A DNA stretch of 57,303 nucleotides, filler included, from Dugesia japonica (lineage: Eukaryota), in the NCBI GenBank assembly GCA_001938525.1. It is 5 parts of 5 records of this genome, joined end to end, with 100 filler letters (N's around TTAATTAATTAA, not from the genome) between each part and the next. Parts side by side here need not be neighbours in the genome. Positions count along the whole stretch, not along the records: positions 1 to 11,962 come from MQRL01584686.1; 4 more parts are not named here. One strand, 5' to 3'. The position numbers were made by a program, and so were the translations under genes. This document shows, one piece after another, positions 701-55,961 of the stretch. The notes below the pieces were generated by a model. The model saw only the letters and a program-made list of their open reading frames with translations. It was not told the DNA's origin and searched no databases. Each line of letters opens with the position of its first letter. Position 1 is the first letter of the stretch.

Positions 701-3700
701 CTCCTTTTAAGAACTTTCTAAGTTTTTGCACATTTCTACAATCTTTTTTCATTTTCTACGTGTACTGCATACCATCTTTCGTGAGTTTTCTTAATTATTC
801 GATAAGGGCCTTCAAATTTGTCTTATTTTATTTCTTTTCTCTACCTTGATGAGGACATAAATTTCTAATTTGAATTCTCTATTAGTAGTCACTTCTGAAA
901 TTCTTTCCTTATTTCTCTATGAAACGTCTGACTCCTAATACTTTTTCCTGCTAATTTTCTTTCTTTCTTTGACATTGTACACATACTTCAAATCTTGGTC
1001 TAGATAACATATCTGCATTTCCATGTTGGATTCTTTTTATATATTCCAACACCATGTCTAGACTACTCAGATAATTAATCCATGTCTGGAATTGTGACGT
1101 AATCGTTTTCTTCGCAGTTATCATGAAAGTTAGAACGTTATAATCTGGTCTAAGAGTAAATCTTCTACCATACAAGTAATGTTTGGAATGCATGCAGAAA
1201 TAATAACAACCAATAATTTCTTTCGTGTGATGGAGTATCCCTTTTCATTGAGTGTGATCCATAGGCACCAACTCTTTCTCTGCCTTATTTATTTCCCTGT
1301 GATAATACTGCTTCAATTGTATCAAAACTGGCATCTGTATCTAATAATATAAATTTTCTGTTTATGTCTGAAAAACACAATATTGGCGCAGTCATTAGAA
1401 CTTTCTTCAAACTCTCAAAAGTATCGTTTATTTCATTTTTCCATTCTTATTTCTTGTTGCTTGGTTCGCTACACGATTGCTCTAAGATTTTTCTTGCGTA
1501 GTTTTCTAAAAACTCTATGAAGTAATTACAAATTTCTAAGAAGCTTCGCAACTTCTTCACGCAGTTAGGCCTACCAAATTTTCTTATTGCTTCTATTTTA
1601 GACGGATCAGTTTTAAAACGATCTCTGCTGATTATGTGCCAAAGAAATTAGATTTCGCTTTGTAGAAACTGACACGTTTCTGGATTAATTGTTAGACTAG
1701 CCATCATTATTTCCGTCAAACTCTTTCAATTACTTGATAGTGGTGATCTTTATTTTAATGAAATCTTAAATGCAATCAATAATTAAGTCCAACAATTATT
1801 CTCACAATAATTGCAATCTTTATTGTTCGTAAATATAAGGATGTCGTCAAGATATATCATGGCTCCTTTAATTCCACCTACCACCTTTGTCATAATTTCC
1901 TGAAATGTTCCCGTTGCCGTTGTGATCCCGAAAGGCATTCTATTAAAACAATATTGTCCATTTTTTCTTTAGATTATTTTTTGAGTTCTACCTGATAGTA
2001 CGCATTTCCCGAATCTATTGAACTGTAATATTTTGCTCCATCTATCGAAAAGGCTTGTATTTTCGTTACTATAATCAATTGCCTGAAATCCAAACATATT
2101 CTTATGTCTTTTTTTTCCTTTTTCCAAACACAAATCAGTGGAGTATTCCATGGCTAGTTACATTTCCATATAATATTATTCTCAAACAGGTTCTGGATAA
2201 CTTCTTCAATTTTAGCTTCTAATTTCATTGGTTGTCTATACCGATTAACATTGATTGGTTCACCACTTATATTTATTTTGTGTTTTATTAGATATGTGAG
2301 TCCTACATCTCATTTATCTGCCATGAAAACATCTTCTTTATTTCCAATTATCTTCAATAAACGTTCATTGTCTTTAATATTCAGAATACTTAAAGCTCTT
2401 GTCTTAAGGCTTTCCCTTTTTAATTTGTCTCCCAAATTTGAATATTACAAATATAACTTTCGACTTTATCATTAGTTTTACTGTTCACTTTTCGTACAAG
2501 CTGGTATCCAAAATTTTCTGCATATCTATTCTTCCAATAAGATCTGGTGTCACTCTTTCTGCAACTAAGAAAGTACCATCTTTGTAAACGACATCAATTG
2601 TCACTCCCAGTCTAACTTTTCTTACAATTTCAATTACTATCGTTTGCACACCGCAATCTTTCATCGCTCCATAACGTAAATTCGAGCCCAGGTGTCTAAA
2701 AGGCATTCAACTTTATTTCCTTGAATTGATACCGTAACACTTGGTCTGCCTTGCAATTTACGGTACAAAATATTTGTTTTCTAATCTGCTTCAATTGTTC
2801 GAACTCATTCTACTTTTCTATCATCCACTAAAGTTTCCTTCTTTAAGAACTTGTATACTTTTTCTGTAACTTTCCCAATATCATCCCACTTTTCGACCCC
2901 TTGAGGATAATTACTTACTTCATTTAACAATAGATAGCTCCAACGAACTCCTCTACCTTTTGGGTACTGGCTTTCGAGTCACTTTCATATACTTCTTCAT
3001 ATCCATCGTTTGTATTGACTTCTTCATCTGCCAATCGCATGTACTCGATTATATCGGTTTTTTTGGCCTCAATTATCAACAAATTTCTGGGTTGTTCATT
3101 TTATTTTCAAATTTGTGTAGCACTCATCTGCTCCATGTTCACCATTTCCACATCTTTTACAGCTCACTTCTTGAAATAATCTTCTAACGTGGCCCACCTT
3201 TCCACAACCAAAACATTTTGTTGATTTTTTTATCTGGGCAAACTCGACTTATATGTCTTTTTTATAACAAGTTCAACATTCTACTACTTTTTTTGTTGGA
3301 AAATTTGCTTTAGTATTAGTAATCTTATGGCATAAGCAACATTCAAAATTTCGTTCTTTGTTTCATGATTCTAAATGTCTACTCACTGTATAATTTACAG
3401 GTTTCTGATAATTGTAACTCTCACGTAACTTCTAACTTCATCAACTTGATCTCTGTTTTTCTCTACTCGATCTAATAACACCATAGTTTCTTCAATTTCT
3501 TCTATATTCTGTTGTTTCCACAAAGTCACTTCTTCTTCAACTTTTTTGTAATCTTAACAATAAACTAGCATCTTTGCTACCAATTTTTCTTTTTATAAAA
3601 TCTTTATTTCTAAATAATCTTTCCACTACATCTTTTAGACTCTTAAAATAAACTTGAATCTCTTCACTTCTATCTGTAATAGAATCAGTATTTACCGCTG

Positions 3701-3870: not shown

Positions 3871-5275
3871 TTATTATAACATTATTAAATAAACTTGTAA
3901 ATAAAACATGTAAACATTACTGTGTAACATTATAAAGAATTCTTTATTCGTATTATCAAACATATTAAACAAATTTAAACGTATAAACAGAACATTTAAA
4001 ATGGTGATAAAAATTGCAACAAATCGAATATGAAGAAATTCTTTAAAAGAAATGAAATAATTAATGTGATAAATGAAAGTGAAATACATTATTAATAAAT
4101 TAATATTTTTTAAATAAATAATTTTACCAAGAATAAATCCATTATTTTTGTTCTTGTAAACTAAAAATTGATCATCTGCAGAAATATTTGTTTTACTAAA
4201 TAGAAATATTTAAAATTTGGTTAAAATTGTTTATTTCAATTACTTATCAGATTCTGAGTAATTCTCTTGTGGTAATTTAGTTTCCTCGTTAATTTTATTT
4301 AATATTTGAAGAAAGCATTTGTGAATATCATTTCTACAAATGAAATATTAAATAAAATTAGTTTTATAAAAGTAAATAAATAAATCTTGTATCAATTTGT
4401 CTAATAAAATGAAAATATATAAAATTAACACTACAACAGACAGTTAATTTAGAAATTATTAAATTTGAATTAATAAATTAAATTAATAAATAAATAAAAT
4501 TTATTCTTCAATATTTTCGAAATCCATTTTTTGTTTAATTAATAAATTTACTATCTTTTAACAAATAGCACAGCCTATTTTTAGTGTATTTATAATTTTG
4601 TTATTATTCCTTAGATTNAATAAAAATAAATCAATAAATAAATAATAAATCAATAATTAATTTAAATAGATTAATTGGGAAAAATCAACAGAAACATGTC
4701 TCACGAAATAATACAATGTAAGTACAATACAAGATGAATAATTTTTGGATTCGAAAAAAAAGAACATTCTTAAGCTGAATATAATAATCTGTCTACTATA
4801 AAATACAACTACTTTAATGCAAAATAAATAAATTAAGTGAGTTCTTTCAAAACTGTCAAAACTCAAACTAATAACATNTAATATCCAATAAACAAGATGC
4901 ATTTCAATTTTCCAAATACATCAATTTACAGTTCCTTAATTACAGACTACGTTAAAACGTTGAAAAGAATATAGGGATAATACCCACAGTTAAGACACTT
5001 AAATTATATTCAGTTGTTTTTAATGTAAAGTGAAATTAGATGATAATTTACCAAAATAAGAAAACTAGTAATATTGTAAATATTATGCCTGAATTATCAA
5101 ACTTAGGCTATGGACTATTAATTTAAATCTATTTAAGTGTAGATATAGTTCTCGGAGATACAAATGACTAAAAGACACAACGCGTTCGAAACAACAACTT
5201 AATAAAAGCCTTAAAGATGACCAAAGCAAGTATCATAAATTAAAAAACATCAAAAGAAAGGAGTGGAATAATATA

Positions 5276-6985
5276 AGTGGGTAGATAGTGCAGCACAATC
5301 AATATTCAATAGCCCCTCCGTGACTTAATGATATTTAATCTTAATGCATTTAGTTGGGAAATTAGAAATTACATCATAAATTACATCATTAGGTAATATT
5401 ATGTCAGGGAGGTTGTTTTTTCTTTGTGTATTTAGTTGGGAAAAATTTTTGCACACAAATTGTTATGAGATTAATTTCTTCTGAAAAATTTTATGTAAAA
5501 GGATTAAGAGAGGTTATTTTTTCCAGTGTATTTAGTTGGGAAAATTTTTGAGGCTTTTTAAACGGCAATACTTTTTAGACTTTTTAATTGGAAAAATATT
5601 TTAGGCTTTTTAAGCAGCAATATTTTTTAGACTTTTTTAATTAACGATTAATGGTTATGTCCAACGATTATTCTCGCAATAATTGCAATTGTAAAAAAAT
5701 TATTATTATTATTCTTTTTTAATTAATATTGGTCTTAAAATTTTCCTTTGACGATTTATTATTTTAAATATTATTTGAATTACCATGAATATTATTATTA
5801 TTTGAAATAATATGAATATTATTATTATTATTACTCCAATTATTATTATTTATTATTGCCTTTATTTGTTATATTAATTAAATTTAATACATTCGAATTG
5901 ATAATAGTGAGTTGAAATTTCCATATCATTTTGCGGATCCGAGTCTAGTCAATTATTGACGATGATTACTGATTGTTTTTAAACAATTGTAATGGTGTAC
6001 ATTCATGACCGGATGTAAACGATTGGAATCACTGCTACTGGAGATGCACATACCGCAATCGAGCTTAGCCTAGTTAAAACTGCTATTGACCAACATTACC
6101 CAAACCACGAATATAATTGACCCATATTTCTTAACCAAGTAAATAATTGATCACAATTACCCAAACCGAGTAAATAATAGACTAAATCTTCCAAAAATTA
6201 ACCATGTTAACCATTCCCGAGGAAATATTTGACCAAATTGACCAAACCTGAGTAAATAATTGATCAAAACGCCCAAAAATTATCTAAACTGACCAATCCC
6301 GAGAAAATTTTCAACCAAATCACACAAAAAAAATTAACCAAGTAAACCAAACCTTAGGAAATTTTCGACCAATTTTACCTGAATCACCCAAAATTACTAA
6401 TTCCTAGGAAATAATGGACCAAATTCATCCGAACTAGCTAAAAATTGACCAAAATAACAATTCCCGAGTAAATTTTCGACCAAATCACCCAAAAATTACC
6501 TAAAACCAACCAAGTTCGACCAAATTGCTCAAACCCGAGGAAGTATTCGACCAAATTCACCTGAGCAAATCAAAAATTGACCTTATTCGACCTCACCAAA
6601 TAAATTCCCAACTAAAAAGCCTGAAAAAATATTGCTGCTTAAAAAGCCTAAAAAATTTTTCCAATTAAAAAAGTCTAAAACATATTGCCGTTTAAAAAGC
6701 CTCAAAAATTTTCCCAACTAAATACACTGGAAAAAATAACCTATCTTAATCCTTTTACATAAAATTTTTCAGAAGAGATTAATCTCATGACATAATTTGT
6801 GTGCAAAAATTTTTCCCAACTAAATACACAGGGAAAAAACAACCTCTCTGACATAATATTACCTAATGATGCAATTTATGATGTAATTTTTAATTTCCCA
6901 ACTAAATGCATTAAGATTAAATTTCATTACGTCACGGAGGGGCTATTGAATGTATACAGAGGCTGTGCTGCACTATCTACCTACT
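5276..6985. mobile_element. Non-autonomous Polinton/Maverick-like DNA element (1710 bp)
   Basis: TIRs of ~365 bp (5276-~5640 and ~6612-6985) with termini AGTGGGTAGATAGTGCAGCAC / GTGCTGCACTATCTACCTACT. 6-bp TSD AATATA at 5270-5275 and 6986-6991. AG...CT ends, a 6-bp TSD and long TIRs are Polinton hallmarks. Confidence 0.8.
6085..6600 (+). repeat. Degenerate strand-biased subterminal repeats (ttgaccaaa / cccgag units) inside the Polinton-like element
   Basis: Recurrent gaccaaa, cccgag and aaattttcgacc motifs on a C/A-rich strand. Confidence 0.7.
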
Positions 6986-7142
6986 AATATATATGTCCAA
7001 ATGAAGACAATGATAATAAATGATTCGTAATTGATGATTGATGGTATTATTATTTGTATTATTATTANNNNNNNNNNNNNNNNNNNNNNNNNNNNNNNNN
7101 NNNNNNNNNNNNNNNNNNNNNNNNNNNNNNNNNNNNATTTTC

Positions 7143-7193
7143 ATAGAGAGTTCAATATTTCGGCTATACCTTCTTCAGGAACTAATACTCTAT
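7143..7193 (-). ncRNA. Minimal type I hammerhead ribozyme (PLE/retrozyme type), copy 1
   Basis: Minus strand reads AUAGAG-uauu-AGUUC CUGAAGA aGGuauagCC GAAAUAUU^GAACU CUCUAU. The CUGANGA/GAAA core is intact, stem I is perfect with a bulged extension, and stem III is a palindromic AUAU. Confidence 0.75.
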
Positions 7194-7481
7194 TCATTCT
7201 GGTTATAAACGTTTAAATAGAAACACAATTTAAATTAATCTGATTAAAATTAATTTTCATTGGTAAATAAANTNTAACATTAAATTTAAAATTTATTGAA
7301 CATTTTCTCGGAAATATTGCATTTCAGAAATTAAAATTTTAAAATTTTCATTTCAAAATTTATATTATAAAAATTAACTTTTCAATTGATCTGTAAATTA
7401 AACAAATATTTTGAAAAACAAATTTCAATAAGTAAAATTCATTTCCAATTGCAAAGAACCAAACGATGTTTTTCTATTTTC

Positions 7482-7530
7482 ATAGAGAGCTCAATATTTC
7501 GGCAATGCATTCTTCAGGAACTTTTGCTCA
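7482..7530 (-). ncRNA. Minimal type I hammerhead ribozyme, copy 2 (339 nt from copy 1)
   Basis: Minus strand reads AGUUC CUGAAGA augcauugcc GAAAUAUU^GAGCU. Stem I is kept by a G-U wobble. It sits in an ~88-bp direct repeat of 7137-7224. Confidence 0.7.
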
Positions 7531-8039
7531 ATTCATTCTGGTTATAAATGTTTAAATAGAAAGTTTATAAACGTTTATAAGTGTCTATGAAATGATAAAA
7601 ATAAATAAATAGTAAAGATAATTGTAAAAATTGCGTTGTTATTTGAAGTAAATAATAATATACCAAATAAAATACCAATATATTTATTTATATGATTTAT
7701 TATTTCAATAANNNNNNNNNNNNNNNNNNNNNNNNNNNNNNNNNNNNNNNNNNNNNNNNNNNNNNGTTTTCAAAAATTTGATTCAAATTTTCGACACCAT
7801 TTTTTATTTCTTTTTCATTCATGTTTCTCATATAATTGAACAATTGTCCAAGAGCTGAAATGAAAATTATTTATTAGTAAAATTAAAATAATTTTTTTTA
7901 ATTTATTAAAATAAAAAATTACGAAAGTTAAAAAATAAAATTACAATTTAATCTAATTAAATAGTTCGAATTATTTTCAAATAATTTTTTTCTTGAACAT
8001 CTTTTGAAAAAAAAATTTGACAAAATTACAAAAGCAATA

Positions 8040-8530
8040 TATTTGTTCCAAATTAAATATTACAAACATGGTACACGTAAATATTGTCAAAATATTGTTA
8101 AAATAATTAAAATAAATTAACCACAATAAACATAAAGAATCGACTTTCTTTGTATATTTAATAAAAACTAATTACTTTTTTTGAAATTATTGGTTTTATT
8201 TTCTTCAGTAATATTGGCCATATCAATAAAATTTTGTCGAATAGGACAACATTGATAAAATATTTCAAGAATNNNNNNNNNNNNNNNNNNNNNNNNNNNN
8301 NNNNNNNNNNNNNNNNNNNNNNNNNNNNNNNNNNNNNNNNNNNNNNNNNNNNNNNNNNNNNNNNNNNNNNNNNNNNNNNNNNNNNNNNNNNNNNNNNNNN
8401 NNNNNNNNNNNNNNNNNNNNNNNNNNNNNNNNNNNNNNNNNNNNNNNNNNNNNNNNNNNNNNNNNNNNNNNNNNNNNTGTTTTGTAGGTACATCTGTCGC
8501 ATTTATTTTTGTCACTCTACAATAAATTAT
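8040..8530 (-). mobile_element. Highly degenerate Penelope-like RT fragment
   Basis: INATDVPT resembles PLE RT 'PIINA.D.PT'. It lies just downstream of the 8622-8659 hammerhead on the same strand. Interrupted by an N gap. Confidence 0.35.
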
Positions 8531-8621
8531 AAAGATTTTTTATAAATCATAAATATTAACTATAAATAATAATTTAATTAAAATAAAGTAATAGCTTCGA
8601 TCAAAATAAACTGTTTTATAG

Positions 8622-8659
8622 ATATTCCAATTTTCGATAATTGTCTTCTTCAGGAATAT
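8622..8659 (-). ncRNA. Hammerhead ribozyme-like motif (G at the cleavage position, probably inactive)
   Basis: Minus strand reads AUAUUC CUGAAGA agacaauuauc GAAAAUUG GAAUAU, with a 6-bp stem I. It is followed by the family motif ttttgatcgaagc. Confidence 0.6.
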
Positions 8660-8944
8660 GATGACTTTTTGATAAATTTACAAAATTGTTTATACTTTAA
8701 AAATATTTTATTGGTTTATTTAAATTATTATTTTATTTTATATTAAATCTAAAATTTTTTAATTAAGTCGAAAAATCATTTAAATGTTTAATTATGTCCA
8801 CTCTGAAATGGTTTCATATATAACAGGAACATTATAAATGATAAAAAACAGTGTAAAACTGAGTAATAAGATAAAGTCATTTTCCAACTAAAGATTTATT
8901 TAGTAAAAATCTGATCAATCAGTCTGTTTCGTTTGTTTGTTATC

Positions 8945-9265
8945 TGGTTAACTTTTTCAAACTTTTTATGTGCTGATAATTTTTAAACTTTTTATTTGGT
9001 AATAATTTCAAGCTTCTTAGTTGATGATTATTTTCAAGCTATTTATTTGGTGATAATTTTTTAGACTTTTAGATTGTGATAGTGTATCAATCAATACCTA
9101 GAGTACTATTTCATTTAAATTAGTTAATCTCATATGATAGAAATATAAGTTCTCTGGTTGATAGTGGTCAGAGATTGGTTCACAATGGTCAGAGATTAGA
9201 CTACAATGCTCATATTTTAGTTGACAGCGTTCAGATTTTTGTTGACAGTACTCAGAGATTGGATG
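8945..9265 (+). repeat. Degenerate minisatellite arrays (~22-bp aattttt-ag-cttttta units, then ~21-bp gttgacagtggtcagagatt units)
   Basis: Visible tandem periodicity. The first array resembles the internal repeats of the Polinton-like TIR at 5540-5640. Confidence 0.55.
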
Positions 9266-9520
9266 GTTATGATTAATTATTTATTCACAAGGGTAGTATT
9301 TTGATGATTTGGGGTAATAGTTTTCTTGGTAAGGGTGATTTGGTCAATTATTTTATTTACATTAGTTAATCTCATATGATAAAATACAAGTCGCTCCCGG
9401 ATATATTACAAATTAGTTGACCTTAATTTATAAAATGTTAATAAATTTTATGTTTTAGAAAAAACGTTAATTTAAATTTAAATTTTCATCGATGAAGTTG
9501 ATTATAATTAATTAGGAAAA

Positions 9521-9890
9521 TTATTGCTTATTTTTAGTATATTTAGTATACAAATTGATAAAACGTTTGAAATCATTTTTGGTGATTTCTAGAATATCTG
9601 TACGTTCTTTATATCTTTCATAGAAATTACTTACAATATCTATGACATTTTCAGGCACTTCAATGGGAATCGGTTCATATAGATTTGTTACATCTAATAA
9701 ACCAAATTCATAATCATTCTTCCAGTCATTATTTTTAATTCGTTCAACAAACTTATAACTTTTTTTCAAACGTGCTGGAATAAAACTTAATAGTGGTCTC
9801 AAACAATCTGTCATAAGTTTGTATAATAAAATAGATGGAATATCAGAAGCATTGACAATAGGTCTTCCTCGCATTGTTGTTACAGTACGT
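9521..9890 (-). mobile_element. Penelope-like element reverse transcriptase fragment
   Basis: GRPIVNASDIP...LLDVTNLYEPIP matches PLE RT motifs RPIV and LDVxSLYTNIP. Confidence 0.8.
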
Positions 9891-9949
9891 AGATGATGGA
9901 ACTCATTCATTACATTTTACTGCTAATAATAATGTTCCCTTTAATAATA

Positions 9950-10022
9950 ATAAATAATAATTAATAATAATANNNNNNNNNNNNNNNNNNNNNNNNNNNN
10001 NNNNNNNNNNNNNNNNNNNNNN

Positions 10023-12062: not shown

Positions 12063-12855
12063 GCGAGAGTTGCAAATCGAAATAATCAGAAACCGGTAAA
12101 TCATACAGTGAATAGACATGTAGAGCAAAGAAAGGAAAAACAAAATATCGAATCTTGGTCATAAGATCGGTCATACTAAAGCAAATTGTCCGACAAAAAA
12201 GTGGTAGAGTGCTGGAGTTGTTATAAAACAGGAAATATACGATGAGATTGTCCAAATAAAAACTCAGCAAAATGTTTTGGTTGGGGAAAGGTTAGCCATA
12301 TTAGAAGGTTATGTCAAGAAGTGAAGTGTAAACGATGTGGTAATGGTGAACATAGAGCAGAAGAGTGCTATACAAAATTAAAAGCGATAAGAACAAGTGA
12401 GAAATTTATGACTGCAGAACGNNNNNNNNNNNNNNNNNNNNNAGTACATGCGATTGAAGATGAAGATGTCAGTACAAACGATGGATATGAGGAAGCATAT
12501 GAAAGTGATTCCGAAAGGCAGTACCAAAAAGGCAGGGCTCCACCAGTAGAGGAGTTGGTTGGAGTCATCCATTATTAAATGAAGTTAGTAATTATCCTCA
12601 AGGGGTCGAAAAGTTGGATGATATATGAAAAGTTACAGAAAAGATATACAGGTTCTTAAAGAGGGAAAATTTTGCAGATGATAGAAAAGTAGAATGGGCT
12701 GGAACAGTTGAAGNNNNNNNNNNNNNNNNNNNNNNGTACCATAAAATGCATGGCATATCAAGTGTTACGGTATCAATTCAAGGAAATAAACTAGAATGTC
12801 TATTAGATATAGGGTCTAGAATTAAAGTGATGAGTTTGAGTTGTTTTAAGTTCCC
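12063..12855 (+). mobile_element. Family A Gypsy gag (CCHC knuckles) and protease fragment
   Basis: CKRCGNGEHRAEEC and ECLLDIGSRIKVMS. Homologous to 2660-3430 and 33744-34460. Confidence 0.88.
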
Positions 12856-13055: not shown

Positions 13056-13339
13056 GACAATAGATATTTGCTACAAAATTCTTTATCTTTTATCAAAATA
13101 TAATTGGTCTAGTTAAATTATAATTTTCTTATTTAAAAATTAAATCTTTTTTAATTAAATTGAATGGAAAATCTCTGAAATGTTTTTTTTAAAAAATAAT
13201 TTATACATTAAAGCACTAAAATATTTAAAATATGTACTTTATTAAAATATAAAAATATTAAAACTTTAATTTTTTACTAATTTTTAAAAATTTTAAAAAT
13301 TTTAATCATTGAAAAATTTTAATTATTGTAAATTTTGAA

Positions 13340-14190
13340 AATCACGTTAATTTTAGATTTCTCCTCTTTAATTAATGTGTTCATGTTTTTTTTCTGTGAA
13401 GTGTAGAAATGTAGTCTGCTCCTAATGTTATCCATGTAATATGTTGTTTTTCTGGGAAAATATTATGTTTCTGCTGAAAGTGTTTGAAGACTTCACCTTC
13501 TTTCTGTTTGAGATGTTNATTAATTCTTGTACGGATGGTTCTGTATGATTCTCCTATATATGTATCCTTAAATAAAGTGCATGTTATTTTGTAAGTGATT
13601 TTTTTATTGCATATATTTCTAGCATCACAAATGCATTTGGGACCACAAAAATTTTGTCTTGGTTTCTGTAATNNNNNNNNNNNNNNNNNNNNNNNNNNNN
13701 NNNNNNNNNNNNNNNNNNNNNNNNNNNNNNNNNNNNNNNNNNNNNNNNNNNNNNNNNNNNNNNNNNNNNNNNNNNNNNNNNNNNNNNNNNNNNNNNNNNN
13801 NNNNNNNNNNNNNNNNNNNNNNNNNNNNNNNNNNNNNNNNNNNNNNNNNNNNNNNNNNNNNNNNNNNNNNNNNNNNNNNNNNNNNNNNNNNNNNNNNNNN
13901 NNNNNNNTTTGAACATAGTCTTTCAGCTCTTACTCTTGATTATTCCAATTTTCTGTCTGATGGTAGTATTACTACTCCACGGTAATATATTTCCACCGTG
14001 GAATGGTTTCATATATAACTGAGTGGTTAATGATTCACCAGGTTTCTTTTGGATTAAGGTGTCCAGTTTATATAAATTACTTTTTCTCGTTTGTTTATGA
14101 TAAATTATGAAGAGATTTTGAAAGCAGATACCTTTTATATGCATGTGTGTTTCATTTTCATAAATGTGTGTATTACGTTTTTCTAATCTT
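13340..14190 (-). mobile_element. Penelope-like element 3' part: RT C-terminus and GIY-YIG endonuclease
   Basis: LDTLIQK...TTQLYMKPFHGGNILPWSS, then CGPKCIC...ITYKITCTLFKDTYIGESYRTIRTRINXH (GIY-YIG preceded by a Cys-rich linker). Confidence 0.85.
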
Positions 14191-19884: not shown

Positions 19885-21754
19885 CAAAATACACTTATAA
19901 ATTTTGTTCCAACAGAAAAATTACAGTTTTTCAAATTTCACTTTATAAAATAACATTCAAATTAACTTTTGAAATCTATATAATATTTTCATCATAAAAA
20001 TAAAAATACAAACAACAAATTGTTCGTTCTGATTTATCCCTCAATTTATCTGTTAATTTTGAGTTGAAACCTTCATCATTGGGATGAAAATCGAAAACCA
20101 TCTACACATTGTCTAAAGGACTTATGATGAAAAATGCTTCGTTCCTGGCGAATAATAAAGAACATTTGCATTAATTTCTTTTTTATATAAAAAATATATT
20201 AAATATTAAATCATTTTATTAAGAAATTTCTAATTACTTTCAAAAAACTTTAACTAATGTCTAAACGTATGTATCATTTCTGAATTTAAAAATTTGTTTT
20301 TCTAAATTTGATTTTAAAAACGAAATAAAAATTTTAATATTTATTAATGATATTTATTAATAATTAAATTCAAATTATTTTCAAATTGATTACATTAAAA
20401 AATAATTTAAAGGAAAATTTCAACTGACATGACAAAAAATTTAACTTTGTTTTTTAAACCAATATATTAATTATATTACATATATATTATATATATTAAC
20501 TTTATAGTTTCACTTTAACTTTATACTGTGAATTAACTTTTTTCGTTTAATTATGACCACAATAAAAACAAACATAAACTTGGAGTTGACAAAACCGTTG
20601 CCGCTTTCATAGCACAAAAGAAAGAAGATGCAGGAATTTGAAACCATTAAAACGTGAACGAAACCTTAAAACTAGCGCTCCAAAAAGCTATGAAAATCTG
20701 ACAAGAATTGAATGAAAAAATATCAGTGTCATAGGATTTTTGTTGTTGCGCAATAACTGATTGCTAATTTATTTGCTGAAAACGTTTTCTGTATGAATAT
20801 TTCTTGTGATTAAACTTATGTTTCTTGAACTATGGAATTGTTGTAGAGTTGGTTGGAACACAAAAAACAAACAATTAACTAATCTACAAACAATGATAAG
20901 TTGAGCCAACACTCGGCTTGCTAGATCCAAAATAAACTAGGNNNNNNNNNNNNNNNNNNNNNNNNNNNNNNNNNNNNNNNNNNNNNNNNNNNNNNNNNNN
21001 NNNNNNNNNNNNNNNNNNNNNNNNNNNNNNNNNNNNNNNNNNNNNNNNNNNNNNNNNNNNNNNNNNNNNNNNNNNNNNNNNNNNNNNNNNNNNNNNNNNN
21101 NNNNNNNNNNNNNNNNNNNNNNNNNNNNNNNNNNNNNNNNNNNNNNNNNNTTGCTAGGACCATAATGAGATAATAGGCAATGCTTATGGAATTTAGTATG
21201 TATTTGCATATAGAAATTAAAATTGCAAGTTTAGAATCATAAACGCATAATTAGATGATAGACAATTCGATGTTATTTTTGAATTCATCTGATTAATATT
21301 TGTCTCCATGATTCTAAAAAACACCTTTCATAAGCGTTGTACAACAAATACTTTCCATTACATTAATAGATTTTTTGACACCATTTATCCTAAAAACTAT
21401 CTGTTCACTGTCTAAAGTTCTTGTATCTAATTTTTTATGTTTTAATGATAAAATTTTAATTTTTTATTTTCAATGATGTATCTATTTTCTATGTTGAAGT
21501 GTCAGATTTATATGACTAAGTGACTGTTTCCATGTTAAAGTGAATATTTTCATAATAATAAAGCTTATATTTGCCATGTTGATTTAGAAAAATATATGTG
21601 ATGAAATATAATTTAGGAAATTTTAATGACTTATAGTAAATCTTTCAAAGTTATATGGACTTCTAAGTAATGTTTGAAAACTTAGTTTTGGCAAATCTTT
21701 AAAAATTTTATCGACTTCTGTGTAGTTTTTGAAATTATTTTTCTTTCCTATTTT

Positions 21755-22096
21755 CACCATTACCACATTTTTTACACCTCACTTCTTGGCACAACCTTCT
21801 AATATGGCCAACCTTTTCACAACCAAAACATTTTTTTGGTTTTTTATTTGGACAATCTTGACGTATATGTTCTATTTTATGACAATTCTAGCACTCTACC
21901 ACCTATTTTTTTGGACATCTTGCTTTAGTATGACCAATCTTATGACAAAACCAACATTCGATATTTTGTTTTTCCTTTCTTTGATCTACATATCTATTCA
22001 CTGTATGATATACAGGTTTCTGGTTATTTCGACTTGAAACTCTCGCGTAACTTCTAATTGCATAGACTTCATCTCTGTTTTTCTTTACTCGATCTA
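21755..22096 (-). mobile_element. Family A Gypsy gag fragment, interrupted by a family B LTR
   Basis: Nucleotide match to 34165-34510 and to the reverse complement of 12063-12350. Confidence 0.85.
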
Positions 22097-24075
22097 TGTG
22101 ATAAATTTAATTTATGATAATATTTAAATATATCTAAATTCAAATTATTGAATATTTAAAACTATATATTCAAAATATTAAAATAAATTTGGTTTGTTTT
22201 AATATTGCGATTTTATGAAATATAATGTTAACTGGTTAAATATCTCTTATTATTTAATATCTAGATTTATATAACATGGCGTCAAATGAGCAGAAAGTTT
22301 TTCTGCAGAAATTTATGTTCAAAGAAAAGGAAGCTAAGTTGTTCAAGTTCAGAAAGGACAATGAAAACTCAGTCAATATTCTAGAGCATTAAAAAAAGTC
22401 CAAGAATTTATAAATTTATGCGATGCTTGTAGTATCACCGTGGAAGAGAGAATTANNNNNNNNNNNNAATATTTTGACGACAACTTGATGAAGGAAATAA
22501 AATGTGATCCAAGCTTTGAGAGTACGAAGGTAGATATCGATTACTTGGAAAAACATCTTATCAGTTTACTGGATGTTTAACCATAAAAAATTAATCAAGC
22601 TATGCCGATACTTGAATTAATGCAGTATCGAAGAGAAAAAATAACGAATTTTGCTAAGCGTATTCGTATGGAGACCAGTGTTTTATTTGACAAGAAAGAG
22701 GAAATCATGGTAAAAGCATTTATTAATAGCTTGGGACATAGAAAATTCGCAAATGCACTAAAAATATTCAAACCAAAATCATTGAAAGAGGCAGTAAAAA
22801 GTATAAAAGATGACAGATGACTACGAAACGAATGAAAATGTATTATGTAATATGCGACAAGAGAATGAAACTATAAAAAATTTGAAAATTGAAACAGAAA
22901 AGCTACAGAATGAAATTGCCGAACTAAAGAGACACAATTACAAATCTCGTGCACCAAATATGTTTAATAAAAATTGGAATAATAATGCACAAAGTTCTGA
23001 AAAAAANNNNAAAAATGGATAACTGTGGGTAGACAAGAAACAAGAACATGCTTTACATGTGGTAAAAAGGGCCATATAGCTAGAGACTGCAATATCAAAA
23101 AATGTTTCAGGTGTGAGGGTGACCATCTTAAAAGAAACTGCAAAAAAACAAGCAGTCNNNNNNNNNNNNNNNNNNNNNNNNNNNNNNNNNNNNNNNNNNN
23201 NNNNNNNNNNNNNNNNNNNNNNNNNNNNNNNNNNNNNNNNNNNNNNNNNNNNNNNNNNNNNNNNNNNNNNNNNNNNNNNNNNNNNNNNNNNNNNNNNNNN
23301 NNNNNNNNNNNNNNNNNNNNNNNNNNNNNNNNNNNNNNNNNNNNNNNNNNNACTTAAAAAATATGAACCAACACTAATATCAGTGTCAAGGCCAGAAAAA
23401 GCAAGAAATAAACCAATTGTTGAATTTCAGGTTGCAGGGGTACCAGTAAAGGCTATGTTTGACTCGGGCGCTCATTTGAATGTTATAAGTCAGAAATTAC
23501 CCGAGCGGACCTGCAATAAGAACCCTGCTGTTAGAAATTTTAAATCTTTGGCAAAAGTAACACGCCCAAATGGTACAACAGAAAAATGTTTGGGGAAGAT
23601 ACAATTAAATATGTCAATTGAACGAGTAATGACAGCACACGTGTTTGATATTATTCCGAATATATTTCCACGTCTATATATTGGATTAAGAAGCATGAAA
23701 AAATACGAAATAATGGTGGATGCAGCAAATGAGGGAATAATAATACCGAATGTTAAGATTTCATTTATTTCAAAAACAGTTTTACCTGAGTCAACTAAAC
23801 CTATTATCGACGGTGTTAATGAGTTGTAGTACATGATTCGGAAAAGCAGAGACTCGTGAGATTTATAATGATAGTCAATGTTATAGAATTGCGGTATTTG
23901 ATGTAAGTGGAATTGGTGAATATTTTTTGAGAGCATGATAATGGACCACTCAGATCAAAAAATTACTTATGACATGAGTAAAGAATGGAGTTTTACTGGA
24001 GATAAAGAGAAAATGGCCGTGCGGAATCTTTTAGTAACAGATGAAATTACAATCGATAATAATGGATACATGTGG
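22097..24075 (+). mobile_element. Gypsy-like LTR retrotransposon family B: 5' LTR, PBS, gag, protease; cut at linker
   Basis: A TG...CA block at 22097-22276 (putative LTR) is followed by TGGCGTC (PBS-like). Gag has CFTCGKKGHIARDC and CFRCEGDHLKRNC, and the protease has AMFDSGAHLNVIS. Confidence 0.8.
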
Positions 24076-38966: not shown

Positions 38967-39381
38967 TTACACTTTTACGATGATGAGTTTCTGGGAACTT
39001 GTATGTTCTGCAACACCATCGGGTGTCAATGCCAGAACATGATCTTCAAGATGATCCAACTGCATCCGACTAATTACTTGGTGCGTTACTAAATGAGCGA
39101 CCCTTCCCTTGATTAATTCTATCCCTTGCCGGAGTCTCTCATTTTCCTGCTGACGTCGTTGGAGAGCGGCCTGGGCATAGGCTAATTGCTGCTTAATAAT
39201 CCGATACTTTCCCACCACTTTTCCGCCCCTGTAAAGTAGATCTGTCTTTTCCTTCTCTTATTTCGACCGCTGTTTGTCTAATAATTCAACTGTGTTTCTT
39301 CAAGGAACCCAGAATGTTCCTTCATCACCATCGTTGGTAAGCACCAACGGGATGTGCGGCTGGTAATATTTGGTAATAAAT
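38967..39381 (-). pseudogene. Coiled-coil coding exon with two in-frame stops (cargo in hAT)
   Basis: Acceptor tttaacag|, then FITKYYQPHIPLVL...WVP*...RSK*...QQLAYAQAALQRRQQENERLRQGIELIK... Confidence 0.45.
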
Positions 39382-42548: not shown

Positions 42549-43630
42549 TTATCCAATTTTGTCCAAATCCAAATTGTTTGTCAGAAGTTTTCTTAGTTTT
42601 GATTTGAATTGGGAAAAATAATTTTCTATTGGGTTCAAGAAAGGGCTATATGGTGGTAGATGAAGAACTTTATGATTTTCTGTTGTTGTCAGCGCATTCT
42701 TGTGGATAGATGCATTATCGTGAATAAAGTAATATTCACTNNNNNNNNNNNNNNNNNNNNNNNNNNNNNNNNNNNNNNNNNNNNNNNNNNAAAAATAATT
42801 TTCTATTGGGTTCAGGAAAGGACTATATGGTGGTAGATGAAGAACTTTATGATTTTCTGTTGTTGTCAGCGCATAGTTGTGGATAGATGCACTATACTGA
42901 ATAAAGTAATATTCACTTGCATCCAATTTTAAAGATAGGTCATGAATAAATTTCATGTAGAGCACTTGGTTGACAGACCCTTGATGAACCAAATGATGAA
43001 TTGGACCTTTTTTTCCAATCGTCATTATGATGGATATATTCTGGCCACGCTGAGTTGGTACCTGAATATATGCATTGTCGCCACTGAGACGTCTTCCTCT
43101 TAATCGTTGGGTCCACACATTGCAATAGGTCTCGTCTATATATATGCATTGACTTGACCGTATTTTGTCCTCGAAAAAGTTTTCCACATATTCTTTCCTT
43201 AGATATTTTACTCGATCAGAAGTTTTTTCAACAACAGAATATCGTAACTTCTTGATCGTATAAAATCTGTTCTTCAAAAAGGCCAATATGGTTGTTGTCG
43301 ATGTATCCAGACCTTTTTCTTGGAAAAACAGTTTCATTTCTTCCAAGGTCATGTAGTTTTTTTTATCGATTTCGTCTAATAATTGGTCCCCCATTTCTTC
43401 ATTAATAATTTATTTTCTGTGCCCACCATGTTTTCCTTTCGAAATTGAACCCGTCTTATTATATTTAAAATATGATTTTTGATTTATTTTAAATAAAATA
43501 ATTTAAATTTCACTTCGAGATAATATTTCTTAAAGAGCCGAAATTCACATTTAGAATTTCGCTGACAGATTTCAAATCTCTGCCCTCTTCAAAAGCTTTT
43601 ATGGTCCGTTAGTTTTTTATAGCAGAAATC
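42549..43630 (-). mobile_element. Tc1/IS630-like DDE transposase (DD30E spacing), degenerate
   Basis: YIDET...HDNASIH...LPPYSPFLNPIENYFS. An N-terminal HTH-like part (DLKSVSEILNVNFGSLRNII...KHGGHRK) lies upstream of the listed ORF. Confidence 0.88.
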
Positions 43631-48106: not shown

Positions 48107-48237
48107 GAAAATATTGATACTGCTGCTGACGATAATTCGAATAATATGAAATCTCTTGAATTTTGGCATAGACTTATTACTTTGGTAGTTTCAATTATTG
48201 AAGAAGATAAGAAAAGTTATGGACCAGTATTAAATCA
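48107..48237 (+). CDS. unc-13: Unc-13/Munc13 internal exon (MUN domain)
   Basis: Acceptor taacag| and donor |gtaagt. Translates [43 protein letters not shown](Q), matching Munc13 '[28 protein letters not shown]'. Ends in phase 2, compatible with the next exon. Confidence 0.93.
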
Positions 48238-50001
48238 GTAAGTGAGCAGATTTTTTAAAAAATTAAATGATAATCGAATGTCAGAAACTAATAATTTGTA
48301 CAAAAGTTATTAATTCAAAGATTAATTCAAACCAATTCACATAAATTTATATTAACAAAATGTTTTAATAAAAAATGCTTTAAGAAAACTAGTTTCAGCA
48401 CAAATTAATGTAAAATAACTTTCTAAAAGTCAAATATAAATCTATGAAATATTGTAAAATTTAAATAAAATTGTATTATAATTATTTTTTAAGTTTATAA
48501 ATCTTATTTTAATTTTATAAATTGAGTANTTTTTATAGCTACATGGTTACTTATACAGCATCAGACAGAATTTCAACGTATCACTCATATTACTCTAACT
48601 TATTTGTACAGTTTTAGGATATCACTTCTTTGTTTTTTACTAAAATAATAAAAATTATTATGAAATAATAAATATTCCAATATTGAATTTTTAAATATCA
48701 GTTATTATTAACTATCCTTAATATTCACTATTCTTGAATGATAGTCTTCATTTTATGTTTTATCTGTTAATTGGAATTGAATTATTCTAATGACAATTTT
48801 TTTTATTATGGACTAGACTAATTGAAAAAATGTAAAATGTAGTTTAGTACAATAATCTTATTATAATCTTTAAAAGGTTTCTTTGATATTTAATTTTCTA
48901 TAAGCTTCATAAATAAAAAAATTGAAATTCAAAATAATTGTTTTAATAATTTTCTATTGAAAACATTCAAGTAAATTAGTCAAATAACACTCTTAGATGA
49001 GTTTGAAGTACTCGTCGGGTAATTAATGTCACAACTCGTTTCCATAAAACATTTATTCACAAAACGAAACAATAATCATCACTATTTGTTTATTCAAACA
49101 AATTAAAACTCTCGTCTAAATGGGAATCATTTTTCAATAAATTTAAAATTTTTGTTTAAATTTTCATTTAAAATAATTTTGAAAATTCAAATAAAATAAT
49201 CAAAATCTNATTTAAAATCTCTCCAAAAATTCCAATAAAATAATCATTTGTATTCAAAATCTCAATTAAAATTCTTTCGAAATTTTAAAATAAACCACTC
49301 ATTTGTTATTAAAATCTTATTTAAAATTCTAAAAATCTACAATAAATTGTGTACAAAAAATATTTAAATTAATCATTAAACTATTCATAATTTTTGTACA
49401 AAAAATTTAATTTAATTTACTTTAATTTCTGAATTAATTTCTGACTTTCAATTTTAATAAAAAGATTTTAAGAAATTGATTTCCAACCAAAGCACAAAAA
49501 TTTCANNNNNNNNNNNNNNNNNNNNNNNNNNNNNNNNNNNNNNNNNNNNNNNNNNATTTAAAATCTCTCCAAAAATTCCAATAAAATAATCATTTGTATT
49601 CAAAATCTCAATTAAAATTCTTTCGAAATTTTAAAATAAACCACTCATTTGTTATTAAAATCTTATTTAAAATTCTAAAAATCTACAATAAATTGTGTAC
49701 AAAAAATATTTAAATTAATCNNNNNNNNNNNNNNNNNNNNNNNNNNNNNNNNNNNNNNNNNNNNNNNNNNNNNNNNNAATTAATTTCTGACTTTCAATTT
49801 TAATAAAAAGATTTTAAGAAATTGATTTCCAACCAAAGCACAAAAATTTCAACTTGCTTTTCAAAACATATTCACAATCACATTCTTATTTGAATAGCTT
49901 TGAAGATATTTTATTCATTTAACTTGTAACTAGAATTTATTAGAGAATTATTTCAATATCTTTTAATACATTTTAAAATGAAACTTCTGATTCTTCTTTA
50001 G

Positions 50002-50214
50002 ATTTCCTCAGGAAGTCAATATTGGACACATTAGTTCAGCTTGTATGTGGCAGAGATTTGGGGAAGATTTAAAAGCATCATTAGAACAACACGTTCAAGC
50101 TAAACCTTGTAAATCCTCCGACTACATGAATTTATTGTTTAAAGCTAAATGGTTCTATAATAAATACATTTCTGATGTGCCGACATTCAAATCCGTAGTT
50201 CCTGACTATCCAAG
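50002..50214 (+). CDS. unc-13: Unc-13/Munc13 internal exon
   Basis: Acceptor tttag| and donor |gtataa. Translates (Q)FPQEVNIGHISSACMWQRFGEDLKASLEQH...DYMNLLFKAKWFYNKY...VPDYP(R), matching Munc13 FPQELNVG/DYMNLHFKVKW. Confidence 0.95.
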
Positions 50215-50257
50215 GTATAATCATTAAATATTTATTTCTGGTTTATTTTGATTGTAG

Positions 50258-50498
50258 ATGGTTTGAACCTTTTATTATGCAGTGGTTAAATGAAAATGAT
50301 GATGTCAGTATGGATTATTTAAGAAATGCTTATGAAAGAGACAGAACAGATGGATTTGAATTGTCAAGTGACCAATCACGATTTTCTACGTCTGTGGTTG
50401 ATGTTTTTACACAACTCAGTCAATGCCTTGAAGTATTGAGAAAATTAGAATGCCCAGATTCTCAAATACAAGCAAATTTTATGCAAAGATTCTCAGCG
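50258..50498 (+). CDS. unc-13: Unc-13/Munc13 internal exon
   Basis: Follows a 43-bp GT-AG intron (50215-50257). Translates WFEPFIMQWLNENDDVSMDYLRNAYERD...SVVDVFTQL...LECPD...FMQRFSA, a conserved Munc13 block. Donor gtttgt, phase 0. Confidence 0.95.
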
Positions 50499-52292: not shown

Positions 52293-53558
52293 TTAGATGT
52301 ATAACTTAGTTTTATNGATTTTCTAAGAGTTAGTATAATTTTTACATTAAACATTCTTTTCCAGTGATACTTACATCATTTTAAAGTATAGATATGCTTT
52401 ATTTAAATTTAATATATCAATATTCGTGAAATTTATTTTTTTAGTTTTAAACTTGTCAAAATTTGTACCACCAAAGCAACATATTCGGGAAGTATTACTT
52501 TTGGTTTTAATCAAAACAAAAAAGCTGCTGAAAGTTTTTGTTTGCTTCAAGAAACTTATGCGAAACATGCACCAACGCAACAGACTTGCGCAAATTGGTT
52601 TAAAAGTTTCAAATGCATGGATTTGGGTGTCAGTGATAAAGAACGTTCTGGTCAACCAAAGAAATTTGAAGATGAAGAATTGGAAGCATTATTTAAGAAA
52701 AAGTCAGCTCAAACAGAAAAAGAACTTGTTAAATGTCACTCAAACAGCCATAAACAAACGCCTACATGCTATGAAAATAATTCTAAAGGAAGGAAAATTG
52801 ATACCACATGAACTAAAACAAGCCAACATTGAAAATCGTTTAATGGTTTGCAATTCATTGATGACTAGACATCTTAGATGGGACTTTTTGCATAGTATGC
52901 TGACTGGTGATGAAAAATAGATTCGTTACTATAGCTCTAAACGCAAAAAATCTTGGGTTCATCCAGGCGAGCCATCCACATCAACAGCAAAAAGAAACAT
53001 TCATGGAGGTAAGGCTATGTTGTGCATTTGGTGGGATCAGAAAGGAGTGGTGTACTATGAGGTCCTAAAATCATACGAAACTATTACGGGTGAACGTTAC
53101 CAACAATAATTAATTGATTTGAATCATGCATTGAATGAAAAGCGTCCGATTCCAGCTAGCACACAACATCAAATAATTTTGCTGCACGACAAGGCTCGAC
53201 CACATGTCTCAAAACAAGTAAAAAATACGTTGGAAGGACTTAAATGGAAAATCCTGCAACATGCTTCCTATTCAACAGATTGTGCTACATCAGATTACTA
53301 CTTATTCCGATCAATGCAAAGTGTTATTCAAAATCACCACTTCAGAAACCACGAAGAAATCAAAAACTGGATTGATGAATGGATGGAATCAAAAGATGAA
53401 CAATTTTTTTTCGATGGAATCCATAAATTTCCAGAAAGATGGTCAAAAGTCATAGCTAACGCTGGAAAATATGTTGATTGAAATAAAATTTACCATTTCT
53501 TAGAAATAAGCTTGTTTTTCTTCTAAAGAAAATCAAAAAAACTAAGTTATACACCTAA
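52293..53558 (+). mobile_element. Near full-length mariner (Mos1/mauritiana-like, DD34D) inside an unc-13 intron; transposase pseudogene
   Basis: TIRs TTAG(A/G)TGTATAACTTAGTTTT with TA flanks, 1266 bp. Motifs SKFVPPKQHIRE, TGDEK, LHDKARPH and YSTDCATSDY. Frameshifts and a stop. Confidence 0.95.
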
Positions 53559-54900: not shown

Positions 54901-55433
54901 AATATTCACANNNNNNNNNNNNNNNNNNNNNNNNNNNNNNNNNNNNNNNNNNNNNNNNNNNNNNNNNNNNNNNNNNNNNNNNNNNNNNNNNNNNNNNNNN
55001 NNNNNNNNNNNNNNNNCTGAAATATAAAAAATTTAAGAAAAAAATCTATATTTTAAAATAAAAGTTGGTTCTAATTTCTTTTATATTTCGATAAAAATTA
55101 GAATAATTCATGCACAACAAATGTTTTCAGTTTCACAAATACAGCTAATTATCACATTTTTTTAACCAACAACTATAATTTGTTACCAGTATATTTATAG
55201 TCATTGAAAATTTTAATTTTAAAGACAAATAAAAATGTTATTAATAAATTTTGAATAATTATGTAACACAAGAAAATCAAGTAATTATAAGAAAACTAGC
55301 AAATTTAGTTTATTTTCATGATTAAAATTCTTTTGATGAATAAACTAAATTTTTTAGAAAAATAGGAGTAAATTTATTTTAGTGTGCTACAAAAAATAGT
55401 TATTTTGTTTATTTGATCTAATAATTTTCTCAG

Positions 55434-55733
55434 ACTGTCAGCAAGGTGTTATTGACATATGCCGAAATAGTCAAGGGCGATTTCAAACAATATGTGTTAC
55501 GCCAAGAAAAGGCATGTATACTTATCAACAACATTCAGCAAATGCGAGTCCAATTAGAAAGATTGTGGGAGGCGATGGGAGGCCAAACTTTAGAGGCTGA
55601 AACAAGAGCTAGTTTAGATGAATTACAACAAATGCTCAATAGTGTCATAAATGATTTGGCAAAAATATTCGCTGACAGTCTTCAACCTCAAATTGTAGCA
55701 AACATTGCTGAGTTAGCTAAACTATTACAGAAT
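55434..55733 (+). CDS. unc-13: Unc-13/Munc13 internal exon
   Basis: Acceptor ttttctcag|. Translates TVSKVLLTYAEIV...CILINNIQQMRVQLERLWEAMGG...LLQN, matching Munc13 [23 protein letters not shown]. Donor gtaggt. Further exons were not recognised in the window. Confidence 0.93.
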
Positions 55734-55961
55734 GTAGGTGTGATTAGTTTATTTAACGAAATTTACATCATAATTCTATATTTATTTCAAAAAATAAAAT
55801 TTGCATATTTTATTACTGTTTNNNNNNNNNNNNNNNNNNNNNNNNNNNNNNNNNNNNNNNNNNNNNNNNNNNNNNNNNNNNNNNNNNNNNNNNNNNNNNN
55901 NNNNNNNNNNNNNNNNNNNNNNNNNNNNNNNNNNNNNNNNNNNNNNNNNNNNNNNNNNNNN

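Follow-up and report, generated by a model that had tools for sequence, protein, structure and literature searches.

What kind of element leaves two hammerhead ribozyme motifs on one strand, 339 nt apart and with no open reading frame (ORF) between them, and can the copy at hand still act? The locus lies in 57,303 nucleotides of joined Dugesia japonica sequence (GCA_001938525.1, filler included), the whole stretch that we analysed and here call the window. It is AT-rich and gappy, with 16-35% G+C per 2 kb. An earlier note made from the sequence alone had proposed a self-cleaving, non-autonomous unit mobilised by the machinery of Penelope-like elements (PLEs). Our analysis covered the motifs, the other copies of the repeat, sampled RNA reads and the PLE remnants nearby.

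Two minimal hammerhead motifs lie in direct repeats

Both minus-strand type I cores described in the earlier note, at 7517 and 7178, are present within direct repeats of 87 bp (Table 1). The repeats, 7137-7223 and 7476-7562, are identical at 78 of 87 sites (89.7%) and differ at 9. Predicted cleavage falls at 7493/7492 and at 7154/7153, which gives the proposed distance of 339 nt. In 5' to 3' order, each copy has a 5-bp stem I, CUGAAGA, an extra A after A9, a 3-bp stem II with a 3-nt loop, GAA, AUAU and U17. All CUGANGA and GAAA bases are kept in both cores, and both copies show what marks a minimal type I hammerhead of the PLE kind: the core CUGANGA plus GAAA..UH, the type I order, and helices I and II. 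The note had linked minimal hammerheads with a palindromic stem III to PLEs, and both copies agree with this, each having the 4-nt palindrome AUAU as its stem III; the note had overlooked the extra A of the two copies. Across the window's five hammerhead sites, the extra A is present in 5 of 5, as is the palindrome at 15.2-16.2.

The two motifs are not equally sound. Stem I pairs at 5 of 5 positions in each, with one U.G (at 7490) in the 7517 copy, and in the 7178 motif it can be extended by 6 bp beyond a 4-nt bulge. The G10.1-C11.1 pair at the base of stem II is present in the 7178 copy and absent from the 7517 copy, where U.C replaces it (7509), a change that the note had also overlooked. 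The tandem unit measures 339 bp, within the 150-450 bp of non-LTR retrozymes, and like them it has less than 50% G+C and one hammerhead per unit, the two being in register; about 1.3 units are visible at the locus, the second being partial.

Table 1. Features of the hammerhead locus and of the neighbouring PLE remnant (positions in the window)
Feature	Position	Strand	Remarks
Downstream repeat copy	7137..7223	-	87 bp visible, runs on into the N gap; carries the intact hammerhead
Upstream repeat copy	7476..7562	-	7562 is the element's 5' boundary
Minimal type I hammerhead, 0 structural defects	7149..7183	-	Core (C3) 7178, U17 at 7154
Minimal type I hammerhead, 1 structural defect	7488..7522	-	Core (C3) 7517, U17 at 7493
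Spacer between repeats	7224..7475	-	252 bp, AT-rich, without ORF homology; part of the repeat family
Predicted cut-to-cut monomer	7154..7492	-	339 nt, 20% G+C
69-N gap, conceals the element's 3' end	7068..7136	.	(TAA)n-like sequence beyond the gap
Possible short inverted repeat remnant adjoining the 5' boundary	7563..7600	+	Tentative, by eye, without a statistic
Broken PLE reverse-transcriptase fragment, separate family	9551..9968	-	HMM E 1e-34
Separate family: 3' UTR of a PLE, a degenerate hammerhead with its core at 8653, and a tail that stops at 8572	8572..8810	-	UTR match, contigs

The two motifs are confirmed as real and far above the level of chance. Over the whole window, a bare core pattern gave 8 matches compared with 2.78 expected, and 8 was reached in 4 of 100 shuffles. 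A structural descriptor, written after the sites had been seen, found 5 sites in the window versus a mean of 0.007 across 150 shuffles. An earlier, looser descriptor recovered the 7178 site alone, with a palindromic match in 0 of 200 shuffles. Motif pairs were counted by an anchored script; a MAFFT alignment of the five motifs had misplaced the 4-nt loop of one. Rfam returned no match at E<=1 for the whole window. Two core-pattern matches without stems, at 27121 and 48126, were set aside as chance. The hammerhead pattern had no match in viral contigs and none in genome contigs, and a search of the viral contigs with the PLE protein P0001 (see below) was negative for all 34 candidate stretches. 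A pattern scan of metagenome contigs yielded 29 loci that we attribute to chance: none combined a stem I of 5 bp with a stem II of 3 bp, none had a PLE ORF, and most had 30-60% G+C.

Left of the hammerhead repeats, 377-bp inverted repeats that are 92% alike (5271-5637 and 6614-6990) surround internally repetitive DNA in a MITE- or foldback-like arrangement. Other broken transposons are scattered through the window. A zinc-knuckle gag-like repeat occurs in four copies, 75-86% alike (2670-3678, 12063-12832, 21736-22096 and 33744-34713); a protease (23353-23826) and an RNase H-like piece (954-1244) point to broken LTR retrotransposons; and a DDE_3 (Tc1-like) transposase remnant lies at 42552-43409 (-), with a 127-bp duplication across a gap. 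Exons of unc-13 (MUN domain; molluscan and flatworm relatives among the best matches) are found only at 48.1-55.8 kb, on the plus strand at 48110-48238, 50006-50495 and 55425-55757, with a mariner-like remnant (52351-53478) between them. A G+C-richer stretch at 38415-39257 (-) holds two coiled-coil-like ORFs of 107 and 96 aa and had no confident Pfam match.

The 339-bp unit belongs to a high-copy repeat family

We mapped two DNA-type contig runs, from two studies, at 82% likeness onto 7276-8900. In both runs summed contig depth was 8,400-70,900 per 55-base bin over 7276-7550 and below 100 from 7606; contigs of the locus-specific flank had a depth of 13-19. Summed depth is not a copy number, and its ratio to the flank amounts to several hundred to several thousand. 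The fall at 7562 is abrupt, from about 32,000 to below 100 within 60 bases. The stretch 7276-7562 thus combines high summed depth with the lack of a PLE protein match, as a multi-copy, non-coding repeat would. We dropped a 5'-truncation gradient drawn from depth; depth follows local mismatches and varies over a tenfold range (4,100-50,600 at single sites).

Junctions in the contigs give the order of parts in other copies. Past 7562, 78 and 84 contigs continue, and their majority sequence is that of window positions 7224-7253 at 30/30 and 29/30 letters; the spacer therefore precedes the hammerhead in other copies. Variants at 7364-7490 are shared in about 90-110 contigs per site, so the spacer also follows it. 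Together these observations indicate the order hammerhead-spacer-hammerhead elsewhere, assembled from junctions in short Logan contigs: individual contigs span 7355-7471 and join 7340-7394 and 7348-7397, and the whole unit is spanned by no listed piece.

This linkage of hammerhead and spacer on both sides in other copies speaks against a local origin of the tandem, by which a single inserted monomer was later partly duplicated in place through unequal recombination or slippage and the tandem would be uninformative on an RNA multimer or circle. Such an origin is favoured by the repeats themselves, which differ at 9 of 87 sites and at 7148/7487 have in common a letter that is in the minority, with about 42% of contig depth. 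Partial tandems are, however, the usual product of PLEs according to PMC8557442 and PMC3846280, and we consider local duplication quite improbable.

Some copies leave the unit at a similar place. Among 16 listed pieces, 4 exit at 7392-7400 into about 375-410 unlike letters at a depth of 11-12 (single-copy). This hints that the 3' ends of dispersed copies lie 92-100 nt beyond the cut, although the cluster comprises 4 listed pieces among more than 15,000, and a pair of these may represent a single locus sampled by both runs. By analogy, the 3' end of our locus would lie near the far edge of the N gap.

The same gap raises the question of assembly, and the earlier note had named a misassembly beside it as a possible refutation. 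The downstream repeat does abut the gap, and elsewhere the window has a gap-flanking duplication (49210-49374 and 49556-49720) that is 100% identical and likely an assembly artefact. The hammerhead repeats, in contrast, differ at 9 sites. The right boundary is bridged without a single difference by contigs at 7539-7801 and 7533-7779 (mapping from 7276 rightward). The two runs contain 0.73 and 0.65 of 49 sampled 31-mers, and the assembly may have been built from the first of them; runs with small shares of these 31-mers were left aside, and none of those listed as containing them is recorded as RNA. Because two studies bridge the right junction, we do not regard the tandem as a misassembly, and an artefact at this locus is hardly credible.

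This copy has probably decayed

The changes in the 7517 motif are best judged from the other copies. At 7509 these have G in 77% and 75% of contig depth and in 79% of RNA reads (among 40 listed variants, with 112 further); at 7490 they have A in 99% of contig depth and 80% of RNA reads. The majority G restores G10.1-C11.1 and the majority A makes a Watson-Crick pair. Because this copy carries the minority letter at both sites, the mismatch at 7509 and the wobble at 7490 are best taken for decay rather than covariation. The claim that stem I is kept in both motifs stands for the pairing, complete in each; covariation at the wobble is unsupported. Two-sided changes that do keep pairing occur between families, across the window's five sites: G-C/A-U in stem II, AUAU/AAUU in stem III and G-C/A-U in stem I. 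This copy is probably dead.

RNA reads and predicted folds

We sampled two raw RNA runs (6% and 25%), one oligo-dT and one labelled 'cDNA'. Over the whole mapped stretch they gave 53 and 813 reads, of which 1/53 and 1/813 had at least 99% identity; 94-100% continue into unlike sequence, and both strands are represented. The mapped RNA reads stem from other copies inside longer transcripts. Coverage over 7276-7605 was about 0.3 and 7 read-equivalents per million. No piled-up read starts or ends occurred in the two runs and no joints among the 15 listed; oligo-dT and cDNA libraries need not contain a 339-nt circle, and a circle junction resembles tandem DNA.

In double hammerheads, each core serves the cut site of the other copy. 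When we forced a double hammerhead on a two-copy transcript, the predicted structure lay 17.6 kcal/mol above the free fold in a model of secondary structure only. In that transcript, stems I and II of the downstream copy pair with probability 0.86-0.98 and are predicted to form freely; the best predicted fold of the 7517 segment is not a hammerhead. The circular monomer of this decayed copy would be 64% paired at -50.1 kcal/mol, a value equalled or bettered by 17 of 200 shuffles (z -1.4), and its modelled fold is not unusually stable.

Could the locus itself be an active retrozyme whose two cuts yield a 339-nt circular RNA? Its unbroken set of core bases and the possible cross-copy pairing of stem I would allow this, and dimeric cleavage persists in an axolotl retrozyme hammerhead whose helix II starts from a U.U mismatch at its base (PMC7229834). 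Several results weigh in the other direction: G10.1 is lost upstream, the double-hammerhead fold carries its predicted cost, the circle is not unusually self-paired, and almost no RNA reads closely match this copy. In vitro cleavage also failed for 8 of 9 predicted Xenopus dimers (bioRxiv 10.64898/2026.07.22.740005). An active locus is very unlikely on this evidence, and release of a monomer from it is unlikely. The proposal of a self-cleaving unit mobilised by PLE machinery survives in part: the PLE-type hammerheads, the ORF-less unit, the repeat family and PLE ORFs in the genome agree with it, whereas the stem II mismatch and the predicted cost of the double hammerhead leave an intact unit at this locus unsupported.

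The neighbouring PLE carries a separate hammerhead family

Of the two places where the note had put PLE fragments, one is real, the reverse-transcriptase (RT) fragment at 9551-9968, and it belongs to another hammerhead family. The other, 8.0-8.5 kb, is unsupported: it had no match to 60 PLE proteins by tblastn, two HMMs and Smith-Waterman (4/20 and 6/20 shuffles as good), although its 205 N bases may hide a distant remnant. Over 109 aa, the ORF piece at 9551-9877 shares 67.9% identity with P0001. This 843-aa protein has an RT, a GIY-YIG-like C-terminus, DKT and CxCx5C, and its motifs point to the Hydra clade. A further fragment (13333-13677) has the same linker as P0001 (CxCx5C).

The hammerhead at 8653 can be placed with this PLE. 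Its upstream flank resembles the 3' UTR that follows the GIY-YIG ORF (13.05-13.2 kb; 0/300 shuffles as good). The family's tail ends at 8572 in 135 and 137 contigs with varied flanks, and it matches both tails of a fold-back pair (31.6-31.7 kb; 0/500 and 3/500 shuffles as good), whose plus copy then runs into codons like the first 21 residues of P0001 (E 0.03; 0/20 shuffles). Each end of this sister family is thus linked to a PLE ORF, which we count in favour of our preferred account of the 339-bp unit (see Discussion). In other copies of the 8653 hammerhead, stem II is restored in 94-95% and U17 in 82-84%.

Further remnants of this kind are spread over the window. The stretch 8572-9968 (-) is a decayed, internally deleted PLE that includes a 30-bp thumb piece (8794-8823) and reaches a summed contig depth of up to 167,000. 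At 13333-14087 (-) lie thumb and GIY-YIG fragments of the P0001 family, followed by a 3' UTR to about 13050 with no hammerhead core behind it. The fold-back at 31600-31720 (121 nt; z -15) contains two head-to-head hammerheads with one defect each; codons for the start of a PLE ORF follow its plus copy at 31774-31833. Stubs of related ORF starts occur at 1770-1817 and 5645-5704, and 36838-36879 holds the stub of a tail.

The 339-bp unit and this neighbouring family have the hammerhead plan alone in common. Comparison of the unit's spacer and tail with the UTR and tail of the neighbouring PLE found no likeness beyond chance (134 and 34 of 300, and 38 of 500, shuffles as good), and within the window it revealed no autonomous partner. 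An apparent homology of the spacer to the neighbouring 3' UTR (3/200 single-base shuffles as good) was rejected; the wrong strand gave 0/200, and the signal was gone with dinucleotide shuffles. The note's description of the unit as non-coding holds, with no match among 60 PLE proteins (best score 49; 12/20 shuffles as good). An autonomous EN+ PLE would have an ORF with RT and GIY-YIG; between the repeats there are 252 bp without protein homology.

The sister family is, on the other hand, exactly the kind of pLTR that a rival account of the locus would require. According to this account, the repeats are two end-pieces (3' UTR, hammerhead and tail) of an autonomous PLE whose ORF lies outside the window; a template jump or nested insertion would have brought them together head to tail, and there would be no independent non-coding element. 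PLEs insert beside or into their own copies, as PMC6765202 reports, and several other copies exit the unit at 7392-7400. The family majority agrees with the downstream copy at 5 listed variant sites, and the upstream copy may therefore be the older one. Against this account, about 90-100 contigs per run share variants at 7364-7384 across the supposed join and single contigs cross it, which argues that it is not private to the locus, and the comparison with 60 PLE proteins detected no ORF start or end in the unit. We regard this account as unlikely, while ranking it first among the alternatives.

Discussion

The best reading of the locus is a decaying, more-than-unit-length copy of a non-autonomous element of the non-LTR-retrozyme type. 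We think it likely that the 339-bp repeat derives from a PLE terminal repeat, and likely also that the reverse transcriptase/GIY-YIG protein of a PLE copied it in trans. The fuller scenario is probable, though well short of certain: a pLTR-derived family that lacks an ORF is copied in trans by a PLE protein, with internal priming, synthesis over one unit and part of the next, and 5' truncation at 7562. Several points are counted against the best reading: no autonomous partner came to light, the order of parts elsewhere is assembled from junctions, the element's 3' end falls within the gap, no target-site duplication is visible, the cluster of 3' ends is small, and the RNA reads show neither piled-up ends nor close matches beyond one per run.

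Under this scenario, a tandem master copy would be transcribed, and a PLE protein would bind the RNA near the hammerhead and nick AT-rich DNA. Reverse transcription would start internally, roughly 90-100 nt downstream of the cut site, and copy one full unit and about 170 nt of the next from an uncut multimer or a circle before stopping, leaving a partial tandem. In intact copies, cutting would require hammerhead dimers formed through the AUAU palindromes and would probably be slow and protein-assisted; it could free 339-nt monomers, which a host ligase could close. The present copy would have decayed since. In a dimer, the damaged upstream core would make the second, downstream cut poor, because each core serves the other copy's site.

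A bolder extension is that this free-living flatworm has a live family of circular-RNA retrozymes built on the minimal PLE hammerhead in place of a canonical one, and that dispersed copies longer than a unit, with a 3' end fixed about 95 nt past the cut and a 5' end variable past the second hammerhead, are footprints of a PLE RT rounding a 339-nt circle. We hold this to be a rather doubtful proposition. If true, circle-templated mobilisation of animal retrozymes, which has been proposed and is unproven, would become testable in an experimental animal. The family would matter more if intact copies make the 339-nt circle, which would bear on in vivo cutting by PLE hammerheads and on the use of circles as templates for tandem insertion. 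As it is, we add one more family to the known PLE-derived hammerhead repeats.

Comparison with known systems

Three bodies of work bear on the locus: (i) EN+ PLEs, (ii) the minimal hammerheads in metazoan PLE pLTRs, and (iii) metazoan non-LTR retrozymes. For the first, P0001, the closest full-length relative of the neighbouring broken PLE, resembles EN+ PLEs of the Hydra clade in its RT, C-terminal GIY-YIG, DKT and CxCx5C; the latter two are given as Hydra-clade motifs in PMC8557442. The neighbouring PLE also resembles EN+ PLEs and the anole element PAc (PMC8557442; PMC11167929) in that a hammerhead directly precedes the start of the ORF, its ends past the hammerhead are fixed, and its flanks are AT-rich and microsatellite-like. 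The 339-bp unit differs from an EN+ PLE: it lacks both an ORF and significant flank homology with the neighbouring PLE, and can therefore be at most a passenger of that or another PLE family. In the anole, PAc shows internal initiation downstream of the hammerhead, AT-rich targets and protein-assisted cleavage, and cleavage is dispensable for PLE insertion in vitro (PMC11167929).

The motifs share with the minimal hammerheads of metazoan PLE pLTRs (PMC4209133) an extra base between 9 and 10.1, G10.1-C11.1 (in the 7178 copy and most of the family), a palindromic 15.2-16.2, a 5-bp helix I, and the occurrence of many families per genome. Helix II is 3 bp here compared with 7-8 bp in schistosome minimal hammerheads, and the arrangement is also different: our same-strand motifs lie 339 bp apart without an ORF between them, whereas the same-strand pairs of PMC4209133 are about 3 kb apart around an ORF and its close pairs are on opposite strands. 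A planarian PLE minimal hammerhead already appears in the supplement of that paper, with a sequence that differs from the 339-bp unit's motif.

In the passages searched we found no planarian retrozyme described, although retrozyme-like repeats in platyhelminths are already mentioned (PMC7229834), and the supplements of PMC7229834, PMC4209133 and the bioRxiv preprint 10.64898/2026.07.22.740005 may list flatworm units. Circles have been proposed as templates for retrozyme insertion (PMC7229834), and a pLTR origin has been argued for animal retrozymes (bioRxiv 10.64898/2026.07.22.740005). Metazoan non-LTR retrozymes differ from our unit in their canonical hammerhead, which is replaced here by the minimal PLE type with its extra A, 3-bp stem II and lack of a helix III hairpin. 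Also unlike retrozymes, our locus has about 1.3 visible units, one damaged core and, as modelled on this decayed copy, a circle that is not markedly self-paired. Abundant linear and circular monomer RNA, target-site duplications and the lack of a PBS and PPT are further marks of retrozymes. The likenesses are broad (PMC7229834; bioRxiv 10.64898/2026.07.22.740005): one type I hammerhead in each unit of 150-450 bp, sequence that is non-coding and low in G+C, a tandem arrangement and the co-presence of PLEs. Similar in size are the newt and axolotl units of 330-350 bp, which likewise have a palindromic helix III and work as dimers. Judged by its sequence, the 339-bp repeat represents a new family of an element type already described between 2014 and 2026.
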